Source: Escherichia coli
Lineage (GTDB): Bacteria; Pseudomonadota; Gammaproteobacteria; Enterobacterales; Enterobacteriaceae
Reading direction: 5' to 3' (one strand)
Length of the DNA stretch: 64,000 nt
Assembly (NCBI RefSeq): GCF_965641715.1
Contig: NZ_OZ282453.1
Positions 3,392 through 52,995 of the stretch are shown piece after piece (position 1 is the stretch's first letter; each line of letters begins with the position of its first letter). The translations under genes were made by a program, and so were the position numbers. The notes beneath the pieces are model-generated. The model made no database searches and was not told where the DNA came from. It worked only from the letters and a program-made list of their open reading frames with translations.

Positions 3392-4621
3392 TTATGCTGG
3401 CCAATCCCACTGCTGATAGGCAGAGAATAGGCGCGTGAGCTCAGCAGGCGCAAGAATATCAACAATATTAGCTCTGTAGCTATGCGATTTACCTAATGGA
3501 ACATTTTCGAAATGATTAGCTTGATAAGGATTAAAATCGTGAAGCTCACCTAATGTTGAGATATCGGTATTAATAGTTTTAAGCCAAGAAACAAGAATTA
3601 CTTTTGCCCCTGTTCTCTGTATGTAAGCTCTTGCCGATTCAAAACTATAGCCTCGAGTTGTTATATCATCTATAAGAAGTACTGTTTTACCAGGGCCTAA
3701 AGGTGGTTTTTTATAGGTAGTTCTAGGATTTCTGTGTGGCTGAGAATTAAGACAAATTGTATTAAGTTGATTGCAATGGTCAATTGCAACTCCCTCATTT
3801 CTTGCTTTTTGAGATTTTTTGGAAGTCGTATGCCTTAAAATAAGATCTGGGATATACGTCTTGCGAAAACATTTTCCAAATATTGAAATCGCTTCATCCA
3901 TGATATTATTCCCATATCCTTGCTTATGCCCTGGATAAACACTAACATAATTAATCATCTTATGAATGCCACTAAAATAGAGACTGGATATTAAGGCACT
4001 CGTCCAAAATTCAGGATGGCCTAATCCATGTTTAGCAGCAGCACGAGCATCTTCAGAGTAAAGAGTATACTCTTCCTTCATGGTGCTGAAAGGAGCAAGT
4101 GCATAGAAATTAAAATCACCATCGTGAATTTCATGACACCAAAGATGCTCTCTTAAACAGAAGGTATCTATAAATCTAGCAATATCTTTAGGGGTTGAAA
4201 ACTCGAAACCATAATCTGTTTTGTCTGCCCACCATGTAGCTCTTAAAAAGAGCAACTCACCATTAACTGCTGTTTGCATGTCGTTTATCGAAGCACCAAT
4301 GTACAAAGTTTCTGTACTTTCCCAACCCATCAAATCAAGGACATATTTTGTAGCATCCGCAGTTGGCTTCCCTGGAATGCTCTTATCTTTCGCTCGACAA
4401 AGATATTTAAATTCTCCCCAATGCTTTTGTAACACATCCTCTAAAGGGGTTCTTTCATCTCCGACAACCCAACCCCTGTTAGTGAATACAACAAACTCGA
4501 TCTTTTTAGTTCTGAAATATCTAATTAATTTATCTACCTCTGCAAAGATTTCGCTATCGATCTTTCCCTTAGGCACAAGAATATCTTCAACACTAAGAAT
4601 CACACCCTTAATTTTGCTCAT
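3392..4621 (-). CDS. satellite cargo: protein with N-terminal Rossmann-like (possibly degenerate HAD-like) domain and C-terminal type I phosphoribosyltransferase domain; ShosT-like candidate
   Basis: PRTase signature VLLIDDITTRG near C-terminus; N-terminal YIGASINDMQTAVNG resembles HAD motif IV; AT-rich; 10-nt gap to upstream gene. Confidence 0.55.
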   Translation of the reverse strand: MSKIKGVILSVEDILVPKGKIDSEIFAEVDKLIRYFRTKKIEFVVFTNRGWVVGDERTPLEDVLQKHWGEFKYLCRAKDKSIPGKPTADATKYVLDLMGWESTETLYIGASINDMQTAVNGELLFLRATWWADKTDYGFEFSTPKDIARFIDTFCLREHLWCHEIHDGDFNFYALAPFSTMKEEYTLYSEDARAAAKHGLGHPEFWTSALISSLYFSGIHKMINYVSVYPGHKQGYGNNIMDEAISIFGKCFRKTYIPDLILRHTTSKKSQKARNEGVAIDHCNQLNTICLNSQPHRNPRTTYKKPPLGPGKTVLLIDDITTRGYSFESARAYIQRTGAKVILVSWLKTINTDISTLGELHDFNPYQANHFENVPLGKSHSYRANIVDILAPAELTRLFSAYQQWDWPA

Positions 4622-4631
4622 TTCATCTTCC

Positions 4632-5696
4632 TTAGAGATCTAAGCTCTGCTGTATCGGCTGTGCTTTTAAATCATGATTATTATTCAAAATATAATTACT
4701 CATCTCATTCAATTCAAAAGGCATTAAAAAAGATAAAGAATTTCTATTTTCTTCAGCAAACTTCAATTCTGGTCTACTTTCATACGTAGTAGGAAGATAT
4801 GGACTCGCTATCTTTTTTGCATACTTAAAAGCATAATCAACAGTATGTGATGTTCCACTTTTAATATTCCATTCGACTGGTATTAGTGAATCACATAAAG
4901 CAGCCTGGATTCTGTTACGCCTTACAAAATTTTCTGCGCTATATGTTTGTTCAGGTAGATACTCGGTAACGATAGCCCCACCATTAGAAACTATTGCTCG
5001 ATATAACTCTTTAGAACCTTTCGGATACTCGACAAAAATCCCATTACCCAATACCGCAATAGTTGGAATGCCATATCTCAGCGATTCATAATGACAACAT
5101 TGATCTATTCCTGTCGCCAAACCACTGACTGTTGAAACATCTTTAGAATATAGAGAAGAAACAATCAGTTTTACTAGAAAAATACCATCATCCGTTGGCT
5201 TTCGTGTCCCCACAATTGCAACAGATTTCTTATTAAGAAGTTCATAATTACCATGAACAAAAATCCAAAATGGCGGATCGCTTATGTTCTTTAATGATTG
5301 AGGAAATGTAGCCTGATCATAAAAGGTGAGCACAATACCATTTTTATTGAGTTCACGAGCTCTCTCCAGTCCCTTAGACCAAAGGTCTTGTTGAAATGTT
5401 TCCCAAGATATATTTTTAGGCAAGGAAACTCTTAGATATCCTGCCAAGGCATCAGCTGTATTATCTTTTAATATATTCTTAAATCCAATTTTGGATTGAT
5501 AGATTTTGCGAAGCGTCCAGTAACCAACCCCCTTTAGACAAGTTAAGGCAAGAAACGCAATAATTTCATTTTTCCAAAACTCTCTAACTTCAGTGTAATC
5601 TTTATATTCCATTTTACGTTTGCCTTTTAGATTACAACCCGTACTCAACACAAAAAATTTAGAAAATTGTTGCCAAAAGCATATTATAAATAGCAT
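4632..5696 (-). CDS. satellite cargo: DprA/Smf-like (SLOG-type Rossmann) protein; ShosA-like candidate; probable start at MEYKDY (5612)
   Basis: DprA core motifs VAIVGTRKPT, GLATGID, TIAVLGNGI, YPKGSKELYRAI, FVRRNRIQAAL; AT-rich. Confidence 0.55.
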   Translation of the reverse strand: MLFIICFWQQFSKFFVLSTGCNLKGKRKMEYKDYTEVREFWKNEIIAFLALTCLKGVGYWTLRKIYQSKIGFKNILKDNTADALAGYLRVSLPKNISWETFQQDLWSKGLERARELNKNGIVLTFYDQATFPQSLKNISDPPFWIFVHGNYELLNKKSVAIVGTRKPTDDGIFLVKLIVSSLYSKDVSTVSGLATGIDQCCHYESLRYGIPTIAVLGNGIFVEYPKGSKELYRAIVSNGGAIVTEYLPEQTYSAENFVRRNRIQAALCDSLIPVEWNIKSGTSHTVDYAFKYAKKIASPYLPTTYESRPELKFAEENRNSLSFLMPFELNEMSNYILNNNHDLKAQPIQQSLDL

Positions 5697-5980
5697 CTTA
5701 CCGCAGATTTGTGAAGCAACAACATCCCTAGGAGAAACCTTAACCTAGCGGGACAACTTACTGACCAATCCTCAGCTAGCTCATTGAATTGCCCCCATAT
5801 CGCACAGCCCCGCACGCCTGCCCGCTTCGCTTAACAGACTGGTTTTCATGCACCTCATAAATCGTCTCAGAAGCCACCAAACAAGGGCTTTCTCGTCAAA
5901 AATGGTGCATAAGACTCATGCGTTTTCATGCGCCATAGACATGCACTCATGCGCTCTCAGGCCAGCCAGGGAAAAGGTGT

Positions 5981-36539: not shown

Positions 36540-37052
36540 TCATTGTGATATTTCCATCTCTGTGATTAATACCGGATAAGCATTTAATTGCAGAGTTTGC
36601 ACGAAATTATCGCAGATAACTGGCAATAACAATAACCCATCAGCCCGCTGCTGTAATACCTCCATTCGTTCTACTGATTCAACATTAACAACCAAACCAA
36701 GGGCATTTAGCGATTTAAGGATCTCCAGATGTTCACTCATCCAGCGCAGAGAAAAAGGATCATCACCAATTATAAAAACAGGCCCCCAGCCGGTTAATAA
36801 CTGGCGTTTCATTACGGAACCAGGATGAAGTCGAGTACATATTACAGGAAATACCCCCTGTTGCGATGGTTCCGATGATGTGGATAATTCAGAAATATTT
36901 TCCATTGTTAGTGAAGAATTAACATGCATTAATAATGGTGAAACAACCTCACTTTCCTTGCTAGTAATGGCTGCACTAATCTGAAAGGAAAATAACAATA
37001 TTATTACGTATAAACTCATTTTTAACATAACACATTCAATCCGTTTATTCAT
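36540..37052 (-). CDS. hypothetical secreted protein (signal peptide), unknown function
   Basis: hydrophobic N-terminus LYVIILLFSFQISAA; AT-rich; between ISAs1 fragments. Confidence 0.4.
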   Translation of the reverse strand: MNKRIECVMLKMSLYVIILLFSFQISAAITSKESEVVSPLLMHVNSSLTMENISELSTSSEPSQQGVFPVICTRLHPGSVMKRQLLTGWGPVFIIGDDPFSLRWMSEHLEILKSLNALGLVVNVESVERMEVLQQRADGLLLLPVICDNFVQTLQLNAYPVLITEMEISQ

Positions 37053-37118
37053 GTTATAGAATAATGATGCTATAAATCATCATTAATGTTCAATTATTTA
37101 ATCACACAATTTAAAAAA

Positions 37119-37622
37119 TCATTGACCAATGTGAATTGGCAATGTACCACTCAAGTTAAAATCACTGAATATTTTATCAATTTCTCTTGCAGTTTCTATA
37201 TATTTAACCTCTTTCGTACTTGCATTATAAATAGCCCAAGCCTCGGGATGGGATGTTCCACCAAACCTTACAAAAAAACTTGATTTCATATTATTATATA
37301 AATTAACATCAGGAAAAGGATCTTCTCCAAAATTAGTAGTATTGAATAATGAAAGTTCGTATCGCTTAGAAAATTCTGTTGGTAGGATAGCTTCACTGCC
37401 ATCAATAGCATTCATCCAGAGTTTGTTACCATTATATTCCAACAATAATCTCTGTTTTGCATGTGTCTTATCTCGTTCTTTAACGACAGCGAATACCTTT
37501 TTAACAACTTGCTGTGCGGATGGTCCTATTGTATTACCAAAAGCTGGCAACCCGATTTTGCCATAAACACTCTCCTGAATGAAATAAATATCCGTTTTAT
37601 CGGCCTCGACAATATCTACCAT
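37119..37622 (-). CDS. hypothetical protein, unknown function (possible orphan immunity protein)
   Basis: AT-rich 167-aa ORF between ISAs1 fragments. Confidence 0.35.
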   Translation of the reverse strand: MVDIVEADKTDIYFIQESVYGKIGLPAFGNTIGPSAQQVVKKVFAVVKERDKTHAKQRLLLEYNGNKLWMNAIDGSEAILPTEFSKRYELSLFNTTNFGEDPFPDVNLYNNMKSSFFVRFGGTSHPEAWAIYNASTKEVKYIETAREIDKIFSDFNLSGTLPIHIGQ

Positions 37623-37850: not shown

Positions 37851-38430
37851 TCACATCTTACATCTTGCCCCTGCCTTGATTATCTTATCTTTCGTTAAAA
37901 TATTAATAGCGATCTTCCGTATCCCTGAAAATAATTCTGCTGCATTTCCTCTTCTTATTTTGAAGTCGTCTTTATTCATTACCACGTCCAGATGCCAGTG
38001 CAATTTATTCTCCACTTGCCAGTGATTTCGGTTCGCTGTGGCGAACTTCTCTGCGGTTAAATCAGCAGAAATGCTATAATATCTGACCGTCATTTCGGGA
38101 TTTTTCTTTTGTTCTGCTATTATTGAGCGAAATGAGACTGCCATGCATAATTTCTTCAGCCCTTTCCATTCAAACGTAAAATCAATAAATTCATCAGAGA
38201 CATGCAAACAATATGAAGACGGGTTTTAATGACATAAATTGCTCCCTTGTGACGACTTTTATCATAAGAGTGCCGGAGCGTTTTTCCATCAATTGTAATG
38301 ACGTCTTTATCATCTGAAGAATGACAGTCACGCATCCAGTTAATAAAGCACTCATGAAATTTTTCAGGACTGATACAGGATACAACTCTGGCAATGATAT
38401 CGTGAACAGGAATACCATTTTCAAAATCAC
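37851..38430 (-). mobile_element. ISAs1-family (H-repeat) transposase remnant, copy A (internally deleted/frameshifted)
   Basis: C-terminal part intact (ORF 37851..38207); N-terminal part ([23 protein letters not shown]) in another frame at 38230-38430. Confidence 0.7.
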
Positions 38431-38772
38431 CATATCACTTCAAAAAATCGGGATGTGTTTCCCCAAATCCTCTATATCTTCCCAGCATTATGCACCAGAA
38501 ATAACGGCGCAAATAGTTAACAGATAGAATATCTGGCAATTTATGTTCCACTTTCCAGGCTTGCCTGTAATCGGGGATAATAGAAATATGTTCCATCAAT
38601 TTTTTAAGTTCCATTTTGCCCCCCTTAATTATGCAATGAGTATTTGATCATGTATAAGCAATGAAAAACAGCTTTAGGTAATAAGGAACACCTCAATTAT
38701 TGAACATAAAATGCGAATTATTTAGTACAAAAAAAGCAGCATTACGTGATTTTTCCCTGGGAGTACAGTGTG

Positions 38773-42594: not shown

Positions 42595-43010
42595 TTATCC
42601 ACGAGGCGCAAAAGCGGCGGCGGCTTCCTGCGCCCTTTTCAGGCACTCCTTACACACCGATTTTTCTGGCGCTTCCTCACCCTCATCGTTGTTATCATTC
42701 TGATCGGACGATGCATTACTATCATTTTGCTCAGCCGCTAAACTTTTATCATCTGCCAGCGCTTTCAGAACCGCCGGTTGCAGCGTCGGCACCGGCGTTC
42801 CCGGACTACCGCCGCTATTGAGATTGATTTTCGGCCCGACGATGTCCACGCCCCCTGAATGGATGACCACAAACGAACCGCCCACCTTCAGGCTTATCCG
42901 GCTGCTGCTCTCCAGCACCACATCGCCCTCCACCTTTAACCACGCCACCGCAGTCAATGGCATCACCGGTTCTGGCGGTAGGTTTATCGTCGATAAAGGC
43001 GGAAGAGGTG
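42595..43010 (-). pseudogene. Chimeric PAAR 3' fragment fused to vgrG 3' fragment (recombination scar)
   Basis: PAAR motif SSAFIDDKPTARTGDAIDCGGVV in one frame, then vgrG C-terminus VLESSSRISLKVGGSFVVIHSGGVDIVGPKINLN in another; junction ~42940. Confidence 0.65.
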
Positions 43011-43082
43011 TTTCCGGCTCTTAAGAAATATTTACGCACATGCACCAGCATTACAGAAAATAAAACCTGCGATACATTTTAA

Positions 43083-43859
43083 TCAATAAGGTTGCTTTAC
43101 CAAGCTTCCATCGATATTGATGGAAAATTCATTAGACCTAATATGAACAGAATGTTGCTCATCATCTTTATCTAATATTTGATTAACAAAAAAAAACGTA
43201 TTTTTATCAAATTCATAATTATCACATCCCTCTCCACTAAATGATATAGCTCTAAAATCATATTCATTACATGAGTATCTTTTCATCAAAATAGAGAGGA
43301 ATGTTTCATTAATTGATTTTAATACAAACCATTTTCTCCTAACAAGTTTGTAGTTTAATGTTTTTATATGATAATTATTTAAACTGGGGAGAAATGAATG
43401 CATATCATTCAATTTTACATCAAAAGATATTTTTTTACCTGCCGTAATTTCCACCCATCGGCTCAAATTCAAATCAAGCTCAAAGGGACAAAAGCCTCCT
43501 AGATAGTCTAAGCTAATATTTCCTGATGTAATCAAGAATTCGTCATCACACAAAGCATCAAATACATCTCCATTTCCTTTTTGGAAGTTCTTTGGATAAT
43601 ATATTCTGGGGAGAAAATACGATTTAGTACTACTGTTATAAAAAGTTATAGTAGCTAAAATATTTTCAGCATGTGGCTTAACCACCAATTTAACAACAAC
43701 ATCATTTGTTAATTCATTACTTATATTTTCCTCTGGCGCTAAATTATGGCTAAGATAAATAATTGGTTTCCCATTGTCACTTCTTCGTTCAAAACCGAAT
43801 CTGTATTTTTTTACAAAAAGATTCTCATTATCTATTGCAATTGCAATAGATAATGGCAA
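43083..43859 (-). CDS. hypothetical protein, candidate immunity for upstream HExxH effector
   Basis: AT-rich 258-aa ORF directly downstream of putative effector; no signal peptide seen. Confidence 0.35.
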   Translation of the reverse strand: MPLSIAIAIDNENLFVKKYRFGFERRSDNGKPIIYLSHNLAPEENISNELTNDVVVKLVVKPHAENILATITFYNSSTKSYFLPRIYYPKNFQKGNGDVFDALCDDEFLITSGNISLDYLGGFCPFELDLNLSRWVEITAGKKISFDVKLNDMHSFLPSLNNYHIKTLNYKLVRRKWFVLKSINETFLSILMKRYSCNEYDFRAISFSGEGCDNYEFDKNTFFFVNQILDKDDEQHSVHIRSNEFSINIDGSLVKQPY

Positions 43860-43924
43860 AAAACAAAGAAAAAAAAACCATCAGTACAACATAATTTAGA
43901 TTATAGAAAGCCAACCTCTTCATC

Positions 43925-44728
43925 TTATTTCCCCGTCAACTCATCAAAACATTTTTCTATCTCTTTTATTTTATCCTCTACTTTTTTTGCTAACATATTC
44001 TCATCTTGAGCTTCAATATCTTCATCATTTAATTTTATATAAAAATATCTTTCAACATTATATGCATTCTCAAATAACTGATCTTTACGCAATGTAACCA
44101 GATCATTAGCCACTGAAACATGTTTCTCATAGCTAACTTCATCCTTATTACTTGTTGCGAACTTATTAATACCCGTATAATCCTGAGTCCACATACCACC
44201 TTTTTGATTGTCACCCCAATACCAAAATATATGGGACATTTCATGGCAAAGTGTACTTACATGAGAGTCTCTACCTGTAACCGACTGTTTTATACCATGT
44301 CTGTATTCAAAATGCGCTCCGATATTTACAATGTAAGGAGGATCAAGATGTGGACTAATAAAAGCAGCAAATTCATTGCAGTTCGTATAATCTTTATAGC
44401 TTTCGATCGTCAAACCATTTGCAATCGTCATTATTCGTCTGATGCCATCCATTATGAATAGTCTCGCTTGCATTCGTTTCCCAGTATCTTCCCCAACTTT
44501 TCTGATTTTTATAATGTCCTCGCCTTTAAGGCCAAAAACTTTAATAAAATCTCGTTGTTGTTCCCCCTCCCATGACATAATATCATCTGCTCTTTTCAAT
44601 AAAACCATTTTCTGTGCTTTACAAGCCTTACTCATCATTATTTTAAATTTATTTGTAATTTTTTGCGGTACTACACATACTTGCGACTCGGGTTGTGAAG
44701 TCCCACTAGTATTATTATTCCCTGCCAT
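43925..44728 (-). CDS. putative zincin-like (HExxH) metallopeptidase toxin, T6SS effector candidate
   Basis: HEMSH motif (LCHEMSHIFWYWG); start MAGNNNTSG overlaps vgrG stop; AT-rich; ORF track extension to 45103 is spurious. Confidence 0.45.
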   Translation of the reverse strand: MAGNNNTSGTSQPESQVCVVPQKITNKFKIMMSKACKAQKMVLLKRADDIMSWEGEQQRDFIKVFGLKGEDIIKIRKVGEDTGKRMQARLFIMDGIRRIMTIANGLTIESYKDYTNCNEFAAFISPHLDPPYIVNIGAHFEYRHGIKQSVTGRDSHVSTLCHEMSHIFWYWGDNQKGGMWTQDYTGINKFATSNKDEVSYEKHVSVANDLVTLRKDQLFENAYNVERYFYIKLNDEDIEAQDENMLAKKVEDKIKEIEKCFDELTGK

Positions 44729-47114
44729 AATGCCCCTCCGGCTCAATATAAAAAGCATCCGAAAATAACAATTGGACTTTAATTTCCTGTGCTGTATCTG
44801 TATAAAATATTTCTGTATATCCCTCTCTGTCTGTTTCACCACGCGTCTGTGTGCCATCCTCAAAAAAGGCAATATACTGCGTCTCTGAATACGGTATCCC
44901 GTCATCGTCCGTAAAATGGAACTGGAGGGTATATTTTTCAGGATCATCTTCATCGTCACCGCCATCACCTCCTCCGTCACTCCCTGCGGGATTGCCACTA
45001 TCCTCTCCGGAGTCATCACTGCCATCATCACTGCTCTCATCCTCCGGAGCCTCCAGCACCGCCGGCTGCATCGTCCCCACCGGTGTCCCCGCACTGCCCC
45101 CACCGTTCAGGTTTATCTTCGGCCCGGCAATATCCACTCCGCCCGGCTGAATGACGATAAACGAGCCACCCACCTTCAGGCTTATCCGGCTGCTGCTCTC
45201 CAGCACGATATCCCCGTCCACTTTTATCCCCAGCGCGCCACTCACCTTCTCCGCCAGGTCCCCCTTCACCTCCAGGCTGTGCTTCCCCTCCACCAGGCTG
45301 ATGTGGTTACCCGTCGTCTTATGCTCCTGCTTCCCTTTCACCGTCACCCTACGGTCATTTCTGACGTACAGACCGTCATCGTGACTCACGCTCACCGTCC
45401 GGTCATTTGTCACCTTCAGCGTCTGGTCGTTACGTACCGTTATGCTCCGGTCGTTCGCCACCGTGATACTCTGGTCGTGGCCTCCTTCTTTTCTGGTCCC
45501 GACCTCAACCGTCTGCCCCTTCACCACCGTTATCTTCTGGTCGTTACCAATGGTCTCCGTATGGTCATGTTTCACATCCGTTGTCCGGTCGTTGAGCACC
45601 TCCGTATCCATGTTCTTCTGCGCATGGATATACACCTGCTCATTACTGGTGGCGTCCTCAAAGCGCAACTCGTTAAATCCGCTTCCTTTATAGGTCTTCG
45701 ACCGTATCGTCATCTGCGTCTTCGTCCCCGGCAGGCTCCCCGGCGAACGGTTGTCCTCATGGTACGTCCGGCCCATGACCAGCGGCTGGTCCGGGTCTCC
45801 GTTCAGGAAGTCAACAATCACCTCCTGACCCACCCGCGGTATCGCCAGGTTACCAAACCCCGGCCCCGCCCACGCCTGTGATACCCGCACCCAGCATGAA
45901 CTCGCCTCCGTCATCCCGTGATAACGGTCCCAGTGGAACTTCACCCGTACCCGGCCATGTTCGTCGCAGAATATCTCCTCACCCTTCGGCCCGGTGACAA
46001 TGGCGCTCTGCGGCCCGTCCACCTTCGGTTTGCTTTGCAGCCGTGGACGCCACGTCCGGTCCGCCGGTATCACCTCTAACTGATTTCCCAGCGTGGTTCC
46101 TCTCCCCTGGCTGCCGTGCAGCGCCTGCGGCTGGCTTCCTGACAGTATGCTCTGTACCACCTGCCATTCACGGTTCAGCATCTTCTGCGGATGCCCCGTC
46201 AGCGTAAACCGCGTTCCCGGCCACAGCCTCGGCGAATTACTCTGCCCTGTGGCCTTTTCCGCATCACTGCGCAGGCTCTCCATCTGGTACAGCGTGAAAT
46301 CCTTGCCGTGCTGCTCATCCTTGAACCTTCCCGGATAATCAAATATCTCGTACTGCGCCAGCTGTCCGTTCAGGTTCTCACCCTGCTGCTCATACATCCC
46401 CGGCCAGTCCGGCACCTTAAACGTGTAATCCTGGCTCTGCACCGACGACGGGCGGACATGCGCCTCATAACGGAACATACTGAGACACTCCGTCTCCGCT
46501 CCTGCCGATGTGTCCGGGTTAAACGGAAGCTCTCCCGCCTGTGACAGCCCCGCCACATCGTCGCACAGCGTCAGCTTCTGCTCCGGACTGTCCGCCGCAA
46601 ACCGCTCAAAGAAGAAAATTCCTTCTTCCGCCCACAGCCGAGCCAGAAACGCCAGGTCGCTCTCCCCGTACTGGACACAGAACTCCCGCGCCGGATGGTC
46701 TTCATAAAACAGCGGAGTCCACTCCGTGACGCCGTTCTCGTTCAGTAACGTGGCCGATATCGTCCGGATATCCTGCTGCTGAAAAATACGAAAGTTCTGC
46801 CGCAGCCCGCACCGCCATAACGGCGGCTCAATACGCAGGTGATAACGCATCTGCCAGCCGTTGTTCTCCTGCATGCCAAAGCCCGCCACCACGCCGGTGA
46901 CATAACGCTGCGCCACCGCGCCCTGCCAGATGGCCAGCGTCGCCTTCTTCTCCAGCAGCATCTCCGCCGTCTGCATAAAAGAGTCGCTGGCAACATCCAC
47001 ACTCATCACAAACGGATAAGACTGGTTCTGGATTAACCTGAAATTCACCACTGCAAAGGTGTCCGGCTCCTGGCCGTCAATCTCCAGCGTAAAGCGCAGA
47101 CCGTTTAAGGACAT
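44715..47114 (-). CDS. vgrG: T6SS spike protein VgrG with acidic linker and C-terminal extension domain
   Basis: 799 aa; repeated octapeptide region; Asp/Gly-rich linker then ~70-aa C-terminal domain. Confidence 0.9.
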   Translation of the reverse strand: MSLNGLRFTLEIDGQEPDTFAVVNFRLIQNQSYPFVMSVDVASDSFMQTAEMLLEKKATLAIWQGAVAQRYVTGVVAGFGMQENNGWQMRYHLRIEPPLWRCGLRQNFRIFQQQDIRTISATLLNENGVTEWTPLFYEDHPAREFCVQYGESDLAFLARLWAEEGIFFFERFAADSPEQKLTLCDDVAGLSQAGELPFNPDTSAGAETECLSMFRYEAHVRPSSVQSQDYTFKVPDWPGMYEQQGENLNGQLAQYEIFDYPGRFKDEQHGKDFTLYQMESLRSDAEKATGQSNSPRLWPGTRFTLTGHPQKMLNREWQVVQSILSGSQPQALHGSQGRGTTLGNQLEVIPADRTWRPRLQSKPKVDGPQSAIVTGPKGEEIFCDEHGRVRVKFHWDRYHGMTEASSCWVRVSQAWAGPGFGNLAIPRVGQEVIVDFLNGDPDQPLVMGRTYHEDNRSPGSLPGTKTQMTIRSKTYKGSGFNELRFEDATSNEQVYIHAQKNMDTEVLNDRTTDVKHDHTETIGNDQKITVVKGQTVEVGTRKEGGHDQSITVANDRSITVRNDQTLKVTNDRTVSVSHDDGLYVRNDRRVTVKGKQEHKTTGNHISLVEGKHSLEVKGDLAEKVSGALGIKVDGDIVLESSSRISLKVGGSFIVIQPGGVDIAGPKINLNGGGSAGTPVGTMQPAVLEAPEDESSDDGSDDSGEDSGNPAGSDGGGDGGDDEDDPEKYTLQFHFTDDDGIPYSETQYIAFFEDGTQTRGETDREGYTEIFYTDTAQEIKVQLLFSDAFYIEPEGHYGRE
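45650..47114. repeat. ~1.5 kb direct repeat, vgrG 5' region copy 1
   Basis: near-identical to 51535..52995 (1 mismatch in the ~130 bp compared by eye); boundaries approximate. Confidence 0.7.
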
Positions 47115-47527: not shown

Positions 47528-48538
47528 TCAAGTAACAGGGATAAACTGACCATCAATCAGCGAAAATACCGGAGCGTAATACCCCATACGCTCTTCACCA
47601 CTTTCATCTGTAAAACGGTAAGTCAGTGGGGAATACGTTGGCATTGATTTATTATATAATTGCACCATACGCCCATTATTCATAACCCGGACGGCATAAT
47701 CGTTCCACCTGATAGGCAGTATTTTGGCTTTTCCACCCTCAAGGTTATCTTTCGGAAAGTGGGAGAGTAATATGTCATCCTCAGAGTCACCGGTTGTGGC
47801 TGACCATGCCTTCAGCGCCTCTGTGTTATATAACTTAAGACGTGCTCTGTCCCCGCTGTTAATAATTGTTGCCATTTCGGTATAGGTGGCTTTTAACTTC
47901 CGTAGCTGCTCGTCGCTTCCGGTATAGGGGGTTGCCCGCGTCCAGGCCCATTCAGGAAGCCCCGTCACCGTGACTTTTTGTGTAAACTGATACACCTTCA
48001 TCCCTTTCGGAAAATAGGTTTCATCAAAATAATCTGGATCTATAAATCCTGGCTCCGCCTGCTCTGCCAGGATCTCTTTCCTGATAACGGGATGCACGCT
48101 GTCTGACCGGGCTTCAGGTATGCCCTGCTGGTTGATGGTCACTTTTATCGAAGAAAGCAGGGTTTCTTCCTGTTTAATAAAACGAACCAAATCCAGGCTG
48201 CACCCTGCTTTTTGGAAAAAACGCCCCCGTTCTTCCGTACTGGCAGGCTTGTCAGAAAACCATCCTAACGCCCCGATTTCCAGACTGATTTCATTTTCTC
48301 CATTCGCCATCAGCATCATGGCATTGGTGCTGGATATGGCCCCGGTGGAATCACCATTCTCTCGCCATGCGTTCATTCGGTTACTGAAGCCGAGGACACC
48401 GTTGGTTTTGATGGCACAATATGATTCCTCAATATTAAACTTACTGCGGATTTTTTGTGGATTTTCACCCGAGTACAATCCTGCTCCCATAATACCTCCT
48501 GACAGTAAAATAACCGATATTAAATGTTTTACCTTCAT
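47528..48538 (-). CDS. secreted protein of unknown function, candidate periplasmic immunity protein
   Basis: N-terminal signal peptide; follows putative effector. Confidence 0.4.
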   Translation of the reverse strand: MKVKHLISVILLSGGIMGAGLYSGENPQKIRSKFNIEESYCAIKTNGVLGFSNRMNAWRENGDSTGAISSTNAMMLMANGENEISLEIGALGWFSDKPASTEERGRFFQKAGCSLDLVRFIKQEETLLSSIKVTINQQGIPEARSDSVHPVIRKEILAEQAEPGFIDPDYFDETYFPKGMKVYQFTQKVTVTGLPEWAWTRATPYTGSDEQLRKLKATYTEMATIINSGDRARLKLYNTEALKAWSATTGDSEDDILLSHFPKDNLEGGKAKILPIRWNDYAVRVMNNGRMVQLYNKSMPTYSPLTYRFTDESGEERMGYYAPVFSLIDGQFIPVT

Positions 48539-48604
48539 AATTATTTTCTCTTAAAAGGAAAAGACTCTCATTATATTGAGTGATTTTAATTGCTGTAATA
48601 TCAC

Positions 48605-50176
48605 TTAATAATCCATGCCTATTGTCCACGTTGTCACTGGCTTCGGCGGTATTACTTTTTTCTCTACCGTGCGTTCTTTACCGTATAAATTAACCCGCAA
48701 TGGTGAATCTTTTATCTCCATAGGATCACATAACTGCCACTCAACGGTATCTTTCTTCTCGGGTTTCTCACTCTTTTCTTTCCCCTTTCCCTTCCCTTTA
48801 CTTTCACCATAAGATACATCCGCCTTAAATTCGAACTTTCCTTTAATGCCGTCATGAAATAATGCCAGGTCCAGTCCGTCATCATGTGAATCGAATCCAA
48901 AGCCAGCTTTCGCCTCTATAGAAGCGGTCGCTTCTGCGGTCAGTTGTACAACAAAAACATTCGCCTCAAACGTCGCACTCACCACACCTTTTAAACCGAG
49001 CTTGATGTTACTTTCCTTTACATTAAACTCCCATTTTTTATCCTTTTCAGCGTATACTGCGCCAAGATCAAGATTAATCTCCGCTGAAATCTCGATATAG
49101 CATTCAACACTGGCTCCGTTTTTACGGAGATATTCACGACATCTGTTGACCAATGACTCGACTTTACAGTATGCACATATAAATGAAATAATATCGAATC
49201 TGAACGACGCTTCAAAAAATGGGGCACCAAACAAACCATAAAAATGACAGGGGCCATCCTGGATATCGGTATATTGATAGGCATACGATATACCCAGTTT
49301 AACGGGTTCTATTTTTGCACTGAACAATGCATATTTGCGCGTACCATTATTATTGTCAGGATCTGGCGCAAAATATTTATTGACATTCTTGACCAGAGAG
49401 TCAATTCTTCCTATCTGTTCCAGTTGCTTTGTTTGTCGAAGTTTTTTTATCTCTTTTTCATATTCACTTGTGTGTTCAACATTAGCTATTTTTACGCCAA
49501 AATCGACAGTCAGGGAAGTCTTGTTTATCCACTCAAACTCAGCAGTGGTATTTGTCCAGCCGCTACGGAGTTTATTTTTATCCCTGGGCTTGGTGTTCTC
49601 CATTGCGTCCCTGGCTTTTATTCTTTCGTCACGCCGCTCTTTTACTGTTCGCGTCTGTTTTGATGACGAAATCTCATAGCTGAACCCTGTAGTAAACCTA
49701 ATTTCCATTGTAGGATAAACATCAATTTCAACATAATTGCCACATTCGTAACAACTGTCAATTCTGACTGAATAATGGGCAGGTTCATAATGATTCTTAA
49801 GTGGAGAGGATATTGCCCCCAAATAATCCCATGGTACGCGAAATGTACCCATAGCAATTATTTCACCTTCAGACAAGTTATCATCCAAAGTGACCTTATT
49901 AGGTATTCCGAAAGGTTGCAGTATCTTATGATTATTTTCTGATTCTTCCTCTAACCATGCCTCATGTGTTCCACTTTTATCGCACTGGTAGGTAATGGTA
50001 ATTATACCATCACATCCGGAACCATCATCCAGTAGCTTAAAACGCGCCACTCCTTCTTTTGACCAGAAATGTTTCTCGCCGGCCTCTGGAAAATCACTAA
50101 TAACATCAAAAATACATGGATCAGGTATGCCGCATTCCACACAGGGCTTTCCGGCTGTCGAAGATGGAGATGTCAT
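48605..50176 (-). CDS. large protein of unknown function, candidate T6SS effector
   Basis: 523 aa, follows DUF4123-like adaptor; Cys-rich N-terminus (CVECG..DPC), Lys/Gly-rich C-terminal tract; AT-rich. Confidence 0.4.
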   Translation of the reverse strand: MTSPSSTAGKPCVECGIPDPCIFDVISDFPEAGEKHFWSKEGVARFKLLDDGSGCDGIITITYQCDKSGTHEAWLEEESENNHKILQPFGIPNKVTLDDNLSEGEIIAMGTFRVPWDYLGAISSPLKNHYEPAHYSVRIDSCYECGNYVEIDVYPTMEIRFTTGFSYEISSSKQTRTVKERRDERIKARDAMENTKPRDKNKLRSGWTNTTAEFEWINKTSLTVDFGVKIANVEHTSEYEKEIKKLRQTKQLEQIGRIDSLVKNVNKYFAPDPDNNNGTRKYALFSAKIEPVKLGISYAYQYTDIQDGPCHFYGLFGAPFFEASFRFDIISFICAYCKVESLVNRCREYLRKNGASVECYIEISAEINLDLGAVYAEKDKKWEFNVKESNIKLGLKGVVSATFEANVFVVQLTAEATASIEAKAGFGFDSHDDGLDLALFHDGIKGKFEFKADVSYGESKGKGKGKEKSEKPEKKDTVEWQLCDPMEIKDSPLRVNLYGKERTVEKKVIPPKPVTTWTIGMDY

Positions 50177-50197
50177 ATAATCTATCCGTTTGTCTTT

Positions 50198-51040
50198 TTA
50201 TTGCGGGATAAATCCCAGTTCCTGTTGTGCAAGTTCATGTACCCGAATATGTCCCGGGTATGACTGATTGCTGAGTTGTTCATACCAGTCATCCGGAATA
50301 TATCTGAGATCGATTATATTTTTTTTCAGTAATATAAGCGTCATTGTTCTGACGGAACGATCATCTGCTATATTTAATGACTGGCAAAAAGAGAAATAAT
50401 CTTCTGCCAGAATTCGGGATGATTCAGCTTTTGATAAATCATCCCATCCGTCTTTATCTACATTTTCTTCGATAAATGCAGATAATATATCAAGATAATT
50501 ATCCCGTGCCTTTCGTTCCAGTTGGCTATATTGTCTGTAACTCAGCGTCAGTTGTGATGGCCGTTCTGCCCTTATATTCATAGTTTCTGCGGGACGGACG
50601 GAAGAAAAATTATCCTCACGACATTCTTCACCATAGCGGGTACTTAGCTGTCTGACGGGGCTGATAAAAGAAAGAAGCTGGCGGGGGGTCAGAACTTCCG
50701 CTAATACCCATATATTCCGGGGATCATAAAATCGCATGAGAACAGGTTTCTCCTGTTCGGGGATCATAACCCACAGATAACGTCTGAAGTGTTGCTGTAG
50801 CTCACGTATGGATGACTCAGAAGTAAGATATATTCCCCACGGCGACGCCTTATCACTCAGCCATGCTTCAACTTCCGGAACAACCTCCACGAGATAAGGG
50901 GCCAGCGCGACCAGATCCGGTTGTATGGGTTCTGCATACAGACAACAGTGCGGGGGATTCACCTCGTTCAGAAAATCCAGCAATCCTTCCTCCACAGCGC
51001 CATCCACAATGGCGTACTGCACGGGTGCCGTTTCCATCAC
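50198..51040 (-). CDS. T6SS effector adaptor/chaperone (DUF4123-like)
   Basis: N-terminal YAIVDGA; overlaps vgrG2 stop. Confidence 0.5.
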   Translation of the reverse strand: MMETAPVQYAIVDGAVEEGLLDFLNEVNPPHCCLYAEPIQPDLVALAPYLVEVVPEVEAWLSDKASPWGIYLTSESSIRELQQHFRRYLWVMIPEQEKPVLMRFYDPRNIWVLAEVLTPRQLLSFISPVRQLSTRYGEECREDNFSSVRPAETMNIRAERPSQLTLSYRQYSQLERKARDNYLDILSAFIEENVDKDGWDDLSKAESSRILAEDYFSFCQSLNIADDRSVRTMTLILLKKNIIDLRYIPDDWYEQLSNQSYPGHIRVHELAQQELGFIPQ

Positions 51041-52995
51041 TTATCCTCCTTCGGACAATGCGACACGAACATCGAACCACTTCCGGCTGCGGCTTTCAGG
51101 ATCACCGGGCGCATCGGCAGGATCACATCCCCCGGACTGCCCCCGCCGTTAAGATTGATTTTCGCGCCCTTAATATCCACGCCGCCGGAATGGATCACCA
51201 CAAATGAACCGCCCACCCGCAGACTGATTTTGCTGTCGCTCTGTAAAACAATATCGCCCTGTACGCTGATACCCAGCGCGCCGCTTATTTTCTGTGCCAG
51301 ATCGCCTTTCACCTCCAGTCCCTGATTGCCCTCTGTCAGGCTGACGTGGTCTTTGGTGGTTTTATGGTCCTGTTTACCTTCAACCGTCACTTTCCGGTCA
51401 TTTGCCACCACCAGGGATTCATCATGCCCGATGCTGACCGTCCGGTCATAGTTGACCCGCTTATCCTTGCTGTTCAGCACAACGACCTGCATATTTTTCT
51501 GTGCGTGCAGATAAATTTCTTCCTTGTCCGTGGCGTCCTCAAACCGCAGTTCGTTAAATCCGCTTCCTTTATAGGTCTTTGACCGTATCGTCATCTGCGT
51601 CTTCGTCCCCGGCAGACTCCCCGGCGAACGGTTGTCCTCATGGTATGTCCGGCCCATGATTATCGGCTGGTCCGGGTCTCCGTTCAGGAAGTCAACAATC
51701 ACCTCCTGACCCACCCGCGGTATCGCCAGGTTACCGAACCCCGGCCCCGCCCACGCCTGCGATACCCGCACCCAGCATGAACTCGCCTCCGTCATCCCGT
51801 GATAACGGTCCCAGTGGAACTTCACCCGTACCCGGCCATGTTCGTCGCAGAATATCTCCTCACCCTTCGGCCCGGTCACAATGGCACTCTGCGGCCCGTC
51901 CACCTTCGGTTTGCTTTGCAGCCGTGGACGCCACGTCCGGTCTGCCGGTATCACCTCTAACTGATTTCCCAGCGTGGTTCCCCTCCCCTGGCTGCCGTGC
52001 AGCGCCTGCGGCTGGCTTCCTGACAGTATGCTCTGTACCACCTGCCATTCACGGTTCAGCATCTTCTGCGGATGCCCCGTCAGCGTAAACCGCGTTCCCG
52101 GCCACAGCCTCGGCGAATTACTCTGCCCTGTGGCCTTTTCCGCATCACTGCGCAGGCTCTCCATCTGGTACAGCGTGAAATCCTTGCCGTGCTGCTCATC
52201 CTTGAACCTTCCCGGATAATCAAATATCTCATACTGCGCCAGCTGTCCGTTCAGGTTCTCACCCTGCTGCTCATACATCCCCGGCCAGTCCGGCACCTTA
52301 AACGTGTAATCCTGGCTCTGCACCGACGACGGGCGGACATACGCCTCATAACGGAACATACTGACACACTCTGTCTCCGCTCCTGCCGATGTGTCCGGGT
52401 TAAACGGAAGCTCTCCCGCCTGTGACAGCCCCGCCACATCGTCGCACAGCGTCAGCTTCTGCTCCGGACTGTCCGCCGCAAACCGCTCAAAGAAGAAAAT
52501 TCCCTCCTCCGCCCACAGCCGCGCCAGAAACGCCAGGTCCGACTCCCCGTACTGCACACAGAACTCCCGCGCCGGATGGTCCTCATAAAACAGCGGCGTC
52601 CACTCCGTGACGCCGTTCTCGTTCAGTAACGTGGCCGATATCGTCCGGATATCCTGCTGCTGGAAGATACGGAAGTTCTGCCGCAGCCCGCACCGCCATA
52701 ACGGCGGCTCAATACGCAGGTGATAACGCATCTGCCAGCCATTGTTCTCCTGCATACCAAAACCCGCCACCACGCCGGTGACATAACGCTGCGCCACCGC
52801 GCCCTGCCAGATGGTCAGCGTCGCCTTCTTCTCCAGCAGCATCTCCGCCGTCTGCATAAAAGAGTCGCTGGCAACATCCACACTCATCACAAACGGATAT
52901 GACTGGTTCTGGATTAACCTGAAATTCACCACTGCAAAGGTGTCCGGCTCCTGGCCGTCAATCTCCAGCGTAAAGCGCAGACCGTTTAAGGACAT
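51037..52995 (-). CDS. vgrG: T6SS spike protein VgrG (short form, no C-terminal extension)
   Basis: 652 aa; N-terminal region near-identical to the 799-aa vgrG. Confidence 0.9.
   Translation of the reverse strand: MSLNGLRFTLEIDGQEPDTFAVVNFRLIQNQSYPFVMSVDVASDSFMQTAEMLLEKKATLTIWQGAVAQRYVTGVVAGFGMQENNGWQMRYHLRIEPPLWRCGLRQNFRIFQQQDIRTISATLLNENGVTEWTPLFYEDHPAREFCVQYGESDLAFLARLWAEEGIFFFERFAADSPEQKLTLCDDVAGLSQAGELPFNPDTSAGAETECVSMFRYEAYVRPSSVQSQDYTFKVPDWPGMYEQQGENLNGQLAQYEIFDYPGRFKDEQHGKDFTLYQMESLRSDAEKATGQSNSPRLWPGTRFTLTGHPQKMLNREWQVVQSILSGSQPQALHGSQGRGTTLGNQLEVIPADRTWRPRLQSKPKVDGPQSAIVTGPKGEEIFCDEHGRVRVKFHWDRYHGMTEASSCWVRVSQAWAGPGFGNLAIPRVGQEVIVDFLNGDPDQPIIMGRTYHEDNRSPGSLPGTKTQMTIRSKTYKGSGFNELRFEDATDKEEIYLHAQKNMQVVVLNSKDKRVNYDRTVSIGHDESLVVANDRKVTVEGKQDHKTTKDHVSLTEGNQGLEVKGDLAQKISGALGISVQGDIVLQSDSKISLRVGGSFVVIHSGGVDIKGAKINLNGGGSPGDVILPMRPVILKAAAGSGSMFVSHCPKEDK
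51535..52995. repeat. ~1.5 kb direct repeat, vgrG 5' region copy 2
   Basis: near-identical to 45650..47114. Confidence 0.7.

Follow-up and report, generated by a model that had tools for sequence, protein, structure and literature searches.

We identified, in a 64,000-nucleotide (nt) stretch of the Escherichia coli chromosome (contig NZ_OZ282453.1 of RefSeq assembly GCF_965641715.1; hereafter the window), what is very probably a toxin-immunity module of a type VI secretion system (T6SS), in which a zinc peptidase of the M35 (aspzincin) family is carried as cargo by the VgrG spike protein and is followed by an immunity gene. The module lies in a T6SS-1-type cluster adjoining yafV, ivy and fadE, and consists of a vgrG gene, a 267-amino acid (aa) effector and a downstream partner, all on the minus strand. 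A first-pass annotation of the sequence had described a 799-aa vgrG, an overlapping 267-aa open reading frame (ORF) with an HEMSH motif and a 258-aa ORF behind it, and all three were found where it had placed them. It had also called the protein uncharacterized and without a named family. That description no longer holds, since RefSeq names the effector peptidase M35 (WP_047624962.1, 100% identical) and homologues have been tested in two papers (PMC10673891, PMC7904677). M35 T6SS effectors with periplasmic immunity are a kind already recognized, and the effector described here is a rare, divergent member.

The effector and partner ORFs are real genes and not chance reading frames, as follows from the identity to a RefSeq protein, from homologues at 57-67% identity and from the recurring vgrG-effector-partner order. 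The effector homologues come from E. coli, Buttiauxella and metagenomes. The gene order occurs at three other chromosomal sites and on one plasmid. With an M35 gene in the middle, it was seen in Buttiauxella, at two places in E. coli (the ansP-yncG locus and, in strain PAR, T6SS-2) and behind clpV-vgrG in a further genus. As expected of T6SS cargo, the effector gene lies directly downstream of vgrG, in or beside a T6SS cluster, with conserved synteny. The region as a whole is matched at 99.4% identity or more in 12 of 5,426 complete E. coli genomes. The effector ORF starts before vgrG has ended, with 14 nt shared around the vgrG stop (ATGGCAGGGAATAA), which makes translational coupling to vgrG probable, and a ribosome-binding site (GGAGGGG) is found 5 nt upstream of the effector ATG. 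Both ORFs are AT-rich, as had been claimed: against a window average of 49.2%, GC content is 59.0% for the vgrG core and 40.9% for the final 74 codons of that gene, while the effector has 34.3% and the partner 29.1%.

On the combined evidence of profile comparison and structure modeling, the 267-aa effector is a divergent M35 zinc metalloendopeptidase, with catalysis predicted. A profile of 25 family members retrieved AsaP1 (E 6.7e-6) and the Grifola peptidyl-Lys metalloendopeptidase GfMEP (E 4.8e-5) from the PDB sequences, and hhalign against GfMEP and AsaP1 gave a probability of 97.4% (E 9e-12). The structure prediction that had been suggested as a check for a zincin fold was carried out with AlphaFold (AF2) without templates. 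The model is confident (predicted local distance difference test score, pLDDT, 90; predicted template-modeling score 0.87), and Foldseek matched it to M35 structures only, with the fold of the M35 catalytic domain. The zincin assignment of the first-pass annotation is thus borne out by both profile and fold. Among the 25 family members, 15 matched the Pfam model Aspzincin_M35 at E <= 0.1 (best 2.4e-6) and two at E <= 0.001. Weak matches to EAD9, SprT-like and Peptidase_M91 were set aside, because they reflect the coiled C-terminal helix or a bare HExxH. The family is small, given that no more than 49 clusters came out of 1.84 billion representative proteins when these were searched exhaustively with the profile. 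About 40 of the clusters, many of them fragments, were additions to what word-indexed searches had returned, namely only nine relatives of the effector and four to seven of the partner. NCBIfam and PADLOC scans of the effector and partner gave nothing relevant, and a literature search for aspzincin or peptidase M35 with T6SS gave nothing useful.

The catalytic residues of M35 enzymes have clear counterparts in the effector. H162-E163-x-x-H166 aligns with H117-E118-x-x-H121 of GfMEP, which are zinc ligands and the catalytic glutamate, and the surrounding stretch VTGRDSHVSTLCHEMSH, which has the HExxH on the active-site helix and the TGxDS...TL motif ahead of it, aligns to TTGTDSQAGTLVHESSH of GfMEP. 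The positions invariant in all 25 members are A122, I136, F140, G152, S155, C161, H162, E163, S165, H166, D183, Y223, N224, E226, Y228 and F229. The GTxDxxYG motif is represented by GGMWTQDYTG, in which T181-Q-D183 corresponds to T128-K-D130 of GfMEP and the YG part is loosely kept. D130 is the third zinc ligand of GfMEP (PMC3268031), a role that would fall to D183 in the effector. Near the C-terminus, NAYNVERYF is the counterpart of NADNHEYF in M35 enzymes, and E226 aligns with GfMEP E157, the residue that sets specificity for Lys at P1' (PMC11985622). The retention of this Lys-N specificity glutamate makes a preference for a Lys-like P1' residue possible. Cleavage by the toxin may accordingly fall on the N-terminal side of Lys, or of residues of the diaminopimelate type, in targets of the envelope such as the Lpp-peptidoglycan link. 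We rejected, as very hard to credit, the idea that the protein is a non-catalytic zincophore secreted by the T6SS for metal acquisition, comparable to Candida Pra1, which has an M35-like fold.

The fold starts near residue 20, behind a disordered N-terminal stretch, which leaves the effector with neither a signal peptide nor a propeptide in cis and sets it apart from the secreted zymogens typical of M35. A propeptide-like domain is instead encoded in trans, by the gene next to the effector.

Evidence that proteins of this kind are antibacterial toxins comes from two homologues. M35-PAR (AKO63_2955) of E. coli PAR kills E. coli and is neutralized by AKO63_2956 (PMC10673891; Commun Biol 2023). 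We located M35-PAR by means of the published primers: a 39-mer rebuilt from two primers sharing ATGAGTAA matched NZ_CP012379.1 at 2972615, while a 44-nt overlap primer and distant blastn with a 30%-related gene gave no match. The gene encodes a 262-aa RefSeq 'hypothetical protein' (positions 5016-5804 of locus L010, NZ_CP012379.1 2967615-2977653) and follows a vgrG flagged by RefSeq as frameshifted. M35-PAR is 28% identical to the effector over the full length (E 7e-29), and AKO63_2956 is 31% identical to the partner (E 2e-30). The same locus contains two tandem vgrG-M35-immunity modules, and the 'VgrG-PAR' and 'DUF2345-PAR' of PMC10673891 are the two halves of one vgrG, for which RefSeq notes a frameshift and an internal stop. 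The second homologue is an 'M35-peptidase' that a B2 strain encodes at an orphan PAAR/VgrG locus; it needs fusion to PelB to inhibit E. coli (PMC7904677). From the description of its locus, this BCE049 protein is probably WP_000342575.1, annotated 'peptidase M35' and encoded in a PAAR-vgrG islet that is flanked by ansP/yncG and yddH.

These reports also bear on whether the protease could be an anti-eukaryotic virulence factor that the T6SS delivers into host cells. Such a role would be in keeping with the presence, among the closest solved relatives, of AsaP1, a toxic extracellular endopeptidase that is toxic to fish, with the mention of M35 proteases in pathogenicity (PMC5874247) and with the cross-kingdom activity proposed for VgrG2b (PMC6899460). 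However, we consider it unlikely: a conserved signal-peptide gene lies downstream of every family member, orphan immunity genes persist without the toxin, homologues kill E. coli and the partner neutralizes (PMC10673891, PMC7904677), and deletion of the effector locus left mouse virulence unattenuated (PMC7904677).

The immunity gene itself is intact in strain A30, where it encodes 279 aa, starts MKRLAFYNLNYVVLMVFFLCFLPLSIAIA/IDNE and has a Sec-type signal peptide. The 258-aa ORF of the window, although present as first described, is only the remainder of this gene, whose ATG (43923) lies one base past the effector stop. The window has nine Ts in a poly-T tract where intact alleles have eight; the additional T puts the signal peptide out of frame, and the immunity protein of the window strain, as written, is probably not exported. 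A second tract also varies, and in JX21CE8 its eight Ts yield a 249-aa, C-terminally truncated allele. The lengths of the first and second tracts are thus T9/T9 in the window (258 aa), T8/T9 in A30 (279 aa) and T8/T8 in JX21CE8 (249 aa). Counted by contig in a public collection, the 279-aa allele occurs 93+3 times, the 249-aa allele 110+10 times and the 258-aa allele 11+1 times, such that the window's form looks like a real minority variant. The differences in poly-T length could mean that the immunity gene varies by strand slippage, or that it has decayed repeatedly. Orphan immunity genes are found in many strains, among them Nissle 1917 (EcN, NZ_CM187577.1 2594787-2595417) and Seattle 1946, which have kept the immunity gene of the paralogous M35 module and nothing else of it.

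All full-length homologues of the partner, which come from Salmonella, Buttiauxella and further genera as well as from E. coli paralogues, carry a signal peptide, as do the intact alleles; in the window copy it is out of frame. C125 and C145 are invariant across the homologues, and the partner is probably disulfide-bonded through them. A Pfam search with the partner and nine homologues found nothing significant. The earlier proposal that the downstream gene confers immunity is supported by its 31% identity to AKO63_2956 and the signal peptide of intact alleles, with the amendment that the window copy is frameshifted at the signal peptide.

Sequence comparison suggests where this immunity protein came from, and we think it probably homologous to the propeptide of M35 zymogens. 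Propeptide sequences were taken from two sources, a homologue of AsaP1 in Aeromonas caviae and an M35 gene of Pseudoalteromonas. With hhalign, the immunity profile matched these two propeptides at a probability of 86.6% (E 4.5e-6, 100 columns), and four prodomain-type sequences at 71% (E 3.7e-5; reversed control E 0.14). When either propeptide was shuffled 5,000 times, the real hidden Markov model (HMM) score was never reached and, in a decoy set of 638 ORFs, each HMM profile ranked the other family right after its own members. Plain BLASTP aligned a Cronobacter member of the immunity family with residues 31-113 of the AsaP1-homologue propeptide (E 2e-5). Similarity to the prodomain, in fold and in sequence, was thus found by several routes, and the beta-sandwich core of the immunity protein is the part that appears homologous. 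The M35 plasmid genes of Ruegeria, Polaromonas and Streptomyces were tried as additions and discarded; as they have no propeptides, the prodomain profile could not be widened with them. Given homology to a propeptide, occlusion of the active-site cleft in trans would be the most likely mechanism of immunity.

A protease gene followed by a stand-alone prodomain-like gene is a layout that already exists outside the T6SS. In A. caviae and in Pseudoalteromonas, the secreted M35 zymogen gene has behind it a short ORF with a signal peptide (L012 1946-2470 and L013 1829-2284, respectively), which is paralogous to the zymogen's own propeptide and may encode a stand-alone secreted inhibitor. Both ORFs keep a K-R..P (Lys-Arg-x-x-Pro) loop; in the AsaP1 zymogen, it is the Lys of this loop that plugs the S1' pocket. 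We are inclined to regard the immunity protein, with some reservation, as an evolutionary offshoot of the inhibitory propeptide of an M35 zymogen, and the module as a secreted protease re-wired for the T6SS. The ancestral module would have had a signal peptide ahead of a prodomain and a catalytic domain and, in many cases, a separate gene for a prodomain paralogue behind them, the arrangement seen in Aeromonas and Pseudoalteromonas. In the course of re-wiring, the naked catalytic domain would have become VgrG cargo, and a signal-peptide-bearing copy of the prodomain the periplasmic antidote. Our literature search found no paper stating a propeptide origin for the immunity protein, and a search for the AsaP1 propeptide gave nothing useful.

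Resemblance to a propeptide also raises the question of whether the partner is a chaperone, adaptor or co-effector that loads or activates the protease, given that propeptides are often folding chaperones in addition to inhibitors and that the window's partner, lacking a signal peptide, could stay in the cytoplasm with the effector. This is quite improbable in our view. Whatever the lineage, intact alleles encode a Sec signal peptide and the conserved cysteines, which would put the protein in the periplasm, away from the site of loading. AKO63_2956 relieved toxicity (PMC10673891), and the intact 279-aa form is far more common than the 258-aa form (96 versus 12 contigs). The signal peptides and the relief of toxicity led us to reject a cytoplasmic chaperone role, and we continue to treat the partner as an immunity protein.

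Loading of the effector onto the spike would not require such a protein. The first-pass annotation had noted an acidic linker and an extra C-terminal domain in VgrG, and had suggested that the domain could bind the effector without an adaptor. The linker (residues 688-725) and the domain (74 aa, residues 726-799) are both present, and the suggestion has gained weight. The terminal domain is kept in all five M35-linked VgrGs examined, including two 841-aa DUF2345-type proteins with an unrelated beta-helix, and its low GC content (40.9%) is like that of the cargo. Residues invariant among the five are F133, F135, D137, G140, P142, Y143 ... G160, T162, D163, G166, T168 and E169. The linker varies in length and is absent from the DUF2345-type M35-linked VgrGs. 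A Pfam scan of VgrG gave no match in the 74-aa domain. The M35 module has no adaptor gene of the DUF4123, DUF1795 or DUF2169 types, whereas both neighboring modules have a DUF4123/Tla1 protein. For the homologue, M35-PAR was pulled down by the C-terminal VgrG fragment 'DUF2345-PAR' (PMC10673891). The lack of an adaptor in the module, the conserved VgrG domain and the published pull-down together support direct, adaptor-free docking of the effector on the 74-aa domain.

We suggest the following model, in which secretion, the docking site, the periplasmic target, the type of substrate and the mode of inhibition are all inferred. The effector would be made in the cytoplasm, without a signal peptide or propeptide, and would dock on the TTR-like VgrG domain, tethered by the acidic linker, to be fired with the spike into a neighboring Gram-negative cell. 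Judging from the homologues and from the location of the immunity protein, it would act in the periplasm, where it would cleave an envelope protein or peptide, with zinc held by H162, H166 and D183 and with E163 as the general base. The 279-aa downstream protein, exported by the Sec pathway, would protect sister cells by covering the active-site cleft in trans, as a propeptide does in cis.

A number of observations weigh against this reading or parts of it. The evidence for toxicity and rescue comes from homologues and not from the window effector itself. By our reading of the primers in PMC10673891, which have the insert ATG directly after GAATTC, the ATG of the M35-PAR insert is out of frame with the pelB leader of pET22b (…AAT TCA TGA). 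The toxicity called 'periplasmic' in that study may thus not have come from a PelB fusion, and the evidence on the compartment derives mainly from PMC7904677 and the immunity signal peptides. As for the enzyme, the effector's own match to Pfam Aspzincin_M35 is sub-threshold (E 0.0022, 18.9 bits, model positions 37-104 of 142), and an NCBIfam scan of the effector matched no model. The spacer between the second His and the Asp is 16 residues, rather than the eight of classical M35, and lies in a loop of lower confidence (block pLDDT 77-81), so it is from the alignment that D183 takes its assignment as a ligand. D154 of GfMEP, in the second shell around H117 (PMC3268031), is replaced in the effector family by an invariant Tyr (Y223). 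A profile of the five VgrG C-termini matched residues 777-830 of VgrG1 of enteroaggregative E. coli (EAEC; 6sjl_A) only marginally (domain i-E 0.023). The structure model of the immunity protein is poor overall (pLDDT 60), and an open search of PDB sequences with the immunity profile returned noise, with AsaP1 unreached. The K-R..P loop is present in all four prodomain-type sequences, and the immunity proteins have C145-P146-F147 in its place. Finally, the immunity gene of the window is frameshifted beside an intact effector, which is awkward for an active, self-protecting system.

This last point could mean that the module is decaying in the window strain and is now a non-functional relic, or that the additional T is a sequencing error. 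We regard either as possible but doubtful. The tract at 43869-43877 is T9 rather than T8, none of the 12 matching complete genomes shares the window's length, both T tracts vary between strains (258, 249 and 279 aa), and a PAAR-vgrG relic and insertion sequence (IS) fragments lie nearby. However, the effector and vgrG frames are intact, and identical or nearly so to those of other strains, and the 258-aa allele occurs on 12 independent contigs and so is probably real and heritable. Moreover, decay would concern the state of the window copy and not the identity of the genes, which we continue to read as those of a VgrG-carried M35 toxin and its immunity protein.

The coordinates of the module and of the features around it are given in Table 1.

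Table 1. Features of the M35 module and its surroundings, in window coordinates
Feature	Coordinates	Strand	Remarks
First spike module	47528-52995		vgrG (652 aa), weak Tla1/DUF4123-like 280-aa protein, 523-aa protein, 336-aa signal-peptide protein
vgrG (TssI spike), 799 aa	44715-47114	-	TIGR03361 E 4.9e-180; Pfam Phage_GPD, Phage_base_V, Gp5_trimer_C x2
VgrG gp27/gp5 core and beta-helix, ~residues 1-687		-	59.0% GC in core
Acidic Gly/Ser/Asp/Glu-rich VgrG linker, residues 688-725	44940-45053	-	From translation
VgrG C-terminal 74-aa domain, residues 726-799	44718-44939	-	TTR-like; candidate effector docking site
Effector ORF, 267 aa	43925-44728	-	ATG at 44728; stop 43925-43927
HEMSH zinc-binding/catalytic motif, residues 162-166	44231-44245	-	H162, E163, H166; invariant in 25 members
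GGMWTQD, aspzincin 'GTxD' motif	44180-44200	-	G177, G178 (at least 90%) and T181 nearly invariant; D183 invariant
NAYNVERYF C-terminal helix motif, residues 221-229	44042-44068	-	A222 nearly invariant; Y223, N224, E226, Y228, F229 invariant
Immunity gene, 279 aa when intact	43083-43923	-	Sec signal peptide and beta-sandwich domain resembling M35 propeptide; frameshifted in window
Poly-T tract	43869-43877	-	T9 in window, T8 in intact alleles; parts signal-peptide codons at ATG 43923 from ORF at TTG 43859
Partner ORF, 258 aa	43083-43859	-	TTG start
Second variable poly-T tract	43188-43196	-	T9 in window and A30; T8 in JX21CE8
Relic: PAAR 3' end (TGDAIDCGGVV...) fused to vgrG 3' end (...VVLESSSRISLKVGGSF...)	42595-43051	-	From translations; RefSeq flags partial VgrG

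The M35 module is the second of three spike modules that the window carries in a row. In the first, where a PAAR gene comes last, the 523-aa and 336-aa proteins, for which an NCBIfam scan gave no match, form an uncharacterized candidate effector-immunity pair. The third begins with the PAAR-vgrG relic and continues with Tla1, Tli1a and a 697-aa Tle1-like lipase. The relic is a recombination scar, left where the M35 cassette was inserted ahead of the older vgrG-Tla1-Tli1a-Tle1 module. Together with the step in GC content, it suggests that the VgrG terminal domain, the M35 gene and the partner apparently entered as one unit, through recombination in a conserved part of vgrG. The edge of the island is marked at 36540-37622 and 37851-38433, where a protein of an integrative and conjugative element family (PFL_4695 type) and fragments of an ISAs1 transposase separate the Tle1 module from yafV.

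Our analysis gives a rare toxin a firm family name and the outline of a mechanism, and it links this toxin to two published, loosely annotated 'M35' effectors. A VgrG C-terminal domain that is inherited with its cargo should be useful for predicting effector loading. The substrate of a T6SS metallopeptidase toxin should be easier to track down with an enzyme like this one, which has 267 aa, folds well and has a Lys-N-like pocket. If the immunity protein does derive from a propeptide, protease toxins in general could gain immunity in this way, and binding in the active-site cleft is to be expected. A propeptide-like immunity protein, if confirmed, would both explain protection and show how a secreted zymogen can become an effector-immunity pair.

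Among known systems, one close relative is the module of WP_000342575.1, probably the one tested in PMC7904677, whose effector and immunity protein are 57% and 41% identical to those of the window and whose 801-aa VgrG is 75% identical to the window VgrG over the last 200 residues, terminal domain included. It differs in setting and in frequency, as it forms an orphan islet in 641 of 5,426 genomes, whereas the window module belongs to a main T6SS-1 cluster in 12 of 5,426. The more distant M35-PAR likewise has a start codon that overlaps the end of vgrG, and its VgrG ends in the same conserved domain. It is found, however, in a T6SS-2 cluster behind a DUF2345-type vgrG flagged as frameshifted, and lacks the C-terminal helix (residues 243-265) of the window effector. 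In EAEC, the TTR domain of VgrG1 binds Tle1 (Flaugnatti et al., as cited in PMC6899460), and the two systems would be alike in having a C-terminal TTR-like VgrG domain to which cargo binds without an adaptor, the match to TTR being marginal and the binding predicted in our case. The EAEC cargo is a phospholipase rather than a peptidase, and VgrGs of the 799/801-aa class join the domain via an acidic linker.

VgrG2b of Pseudomonas aeruginosa offers a functional parallel. Its C-terminal peptidase, of the DUF4157 type, is toxic only in the periplasm and is neutralized by the downstream PA0261 (PMC6899460). The shared HExxH chemistry, the position on VgrG after DUF2345 and TTR, the periplasmic toxicity and the small downstream periplasmic immunity gene (PMC6899460, PMC10673891) might place the effector in this family; PMC10673891 implies as much, since it treats M35-PAR and the PA0262 toxin domain as equivalent. 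We find this highly improbable and have rejected it. VgrG2b was not retrieved in any sequence or fold search, and the equation is therefore unsupported at the family level; the VgrG2b peptidase belongs to another zincin family and is covalently fused to VgrG. Our results thus separate the effector family from the DUF4157 peptidases with which it has been equated.

Compared to the classical MEROPS M35 enzymes GfMEP (1g12), AsaP1 (2x3a) and deuterolysin (1eb6), to which it is about 15-19% identical, the effector has no signal peptide or propeptide in cis, a 16-residue in place of an eight-residue spacer, a Tyr in place of D154, no fungal-type disulfides, and predicted delivery by the T6SS. A fusion on the Cronobacter sakazakii plasmid pESA3 (L011 1460-5079) stands between the two groups. 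Here the 980-aa VgrG encoded by ESA_RS20965 has, as its C-terminus, the M35 domain of the effector family, with the family motifs, the canonical short HEMSHYNDVLGTDD spacing, the ending NAYNFERYFQ and 33% identity to AsaP1 (tblastn). The 226-aa signal-peptide protein encoded downstream belongs to the same immunity family (hhalign 97%, E 1e-10). Its true start is ATG 4399, which overlaps the vgrG stop and gives the signal peptide, while the RefSeq start at 4456 gives none. With its short canonical spacing, the pESA3 toxin bridges the effector family and classical M35, and it shows that the toxin exists both fused to VgrG and, as in the window, as separate cargo.

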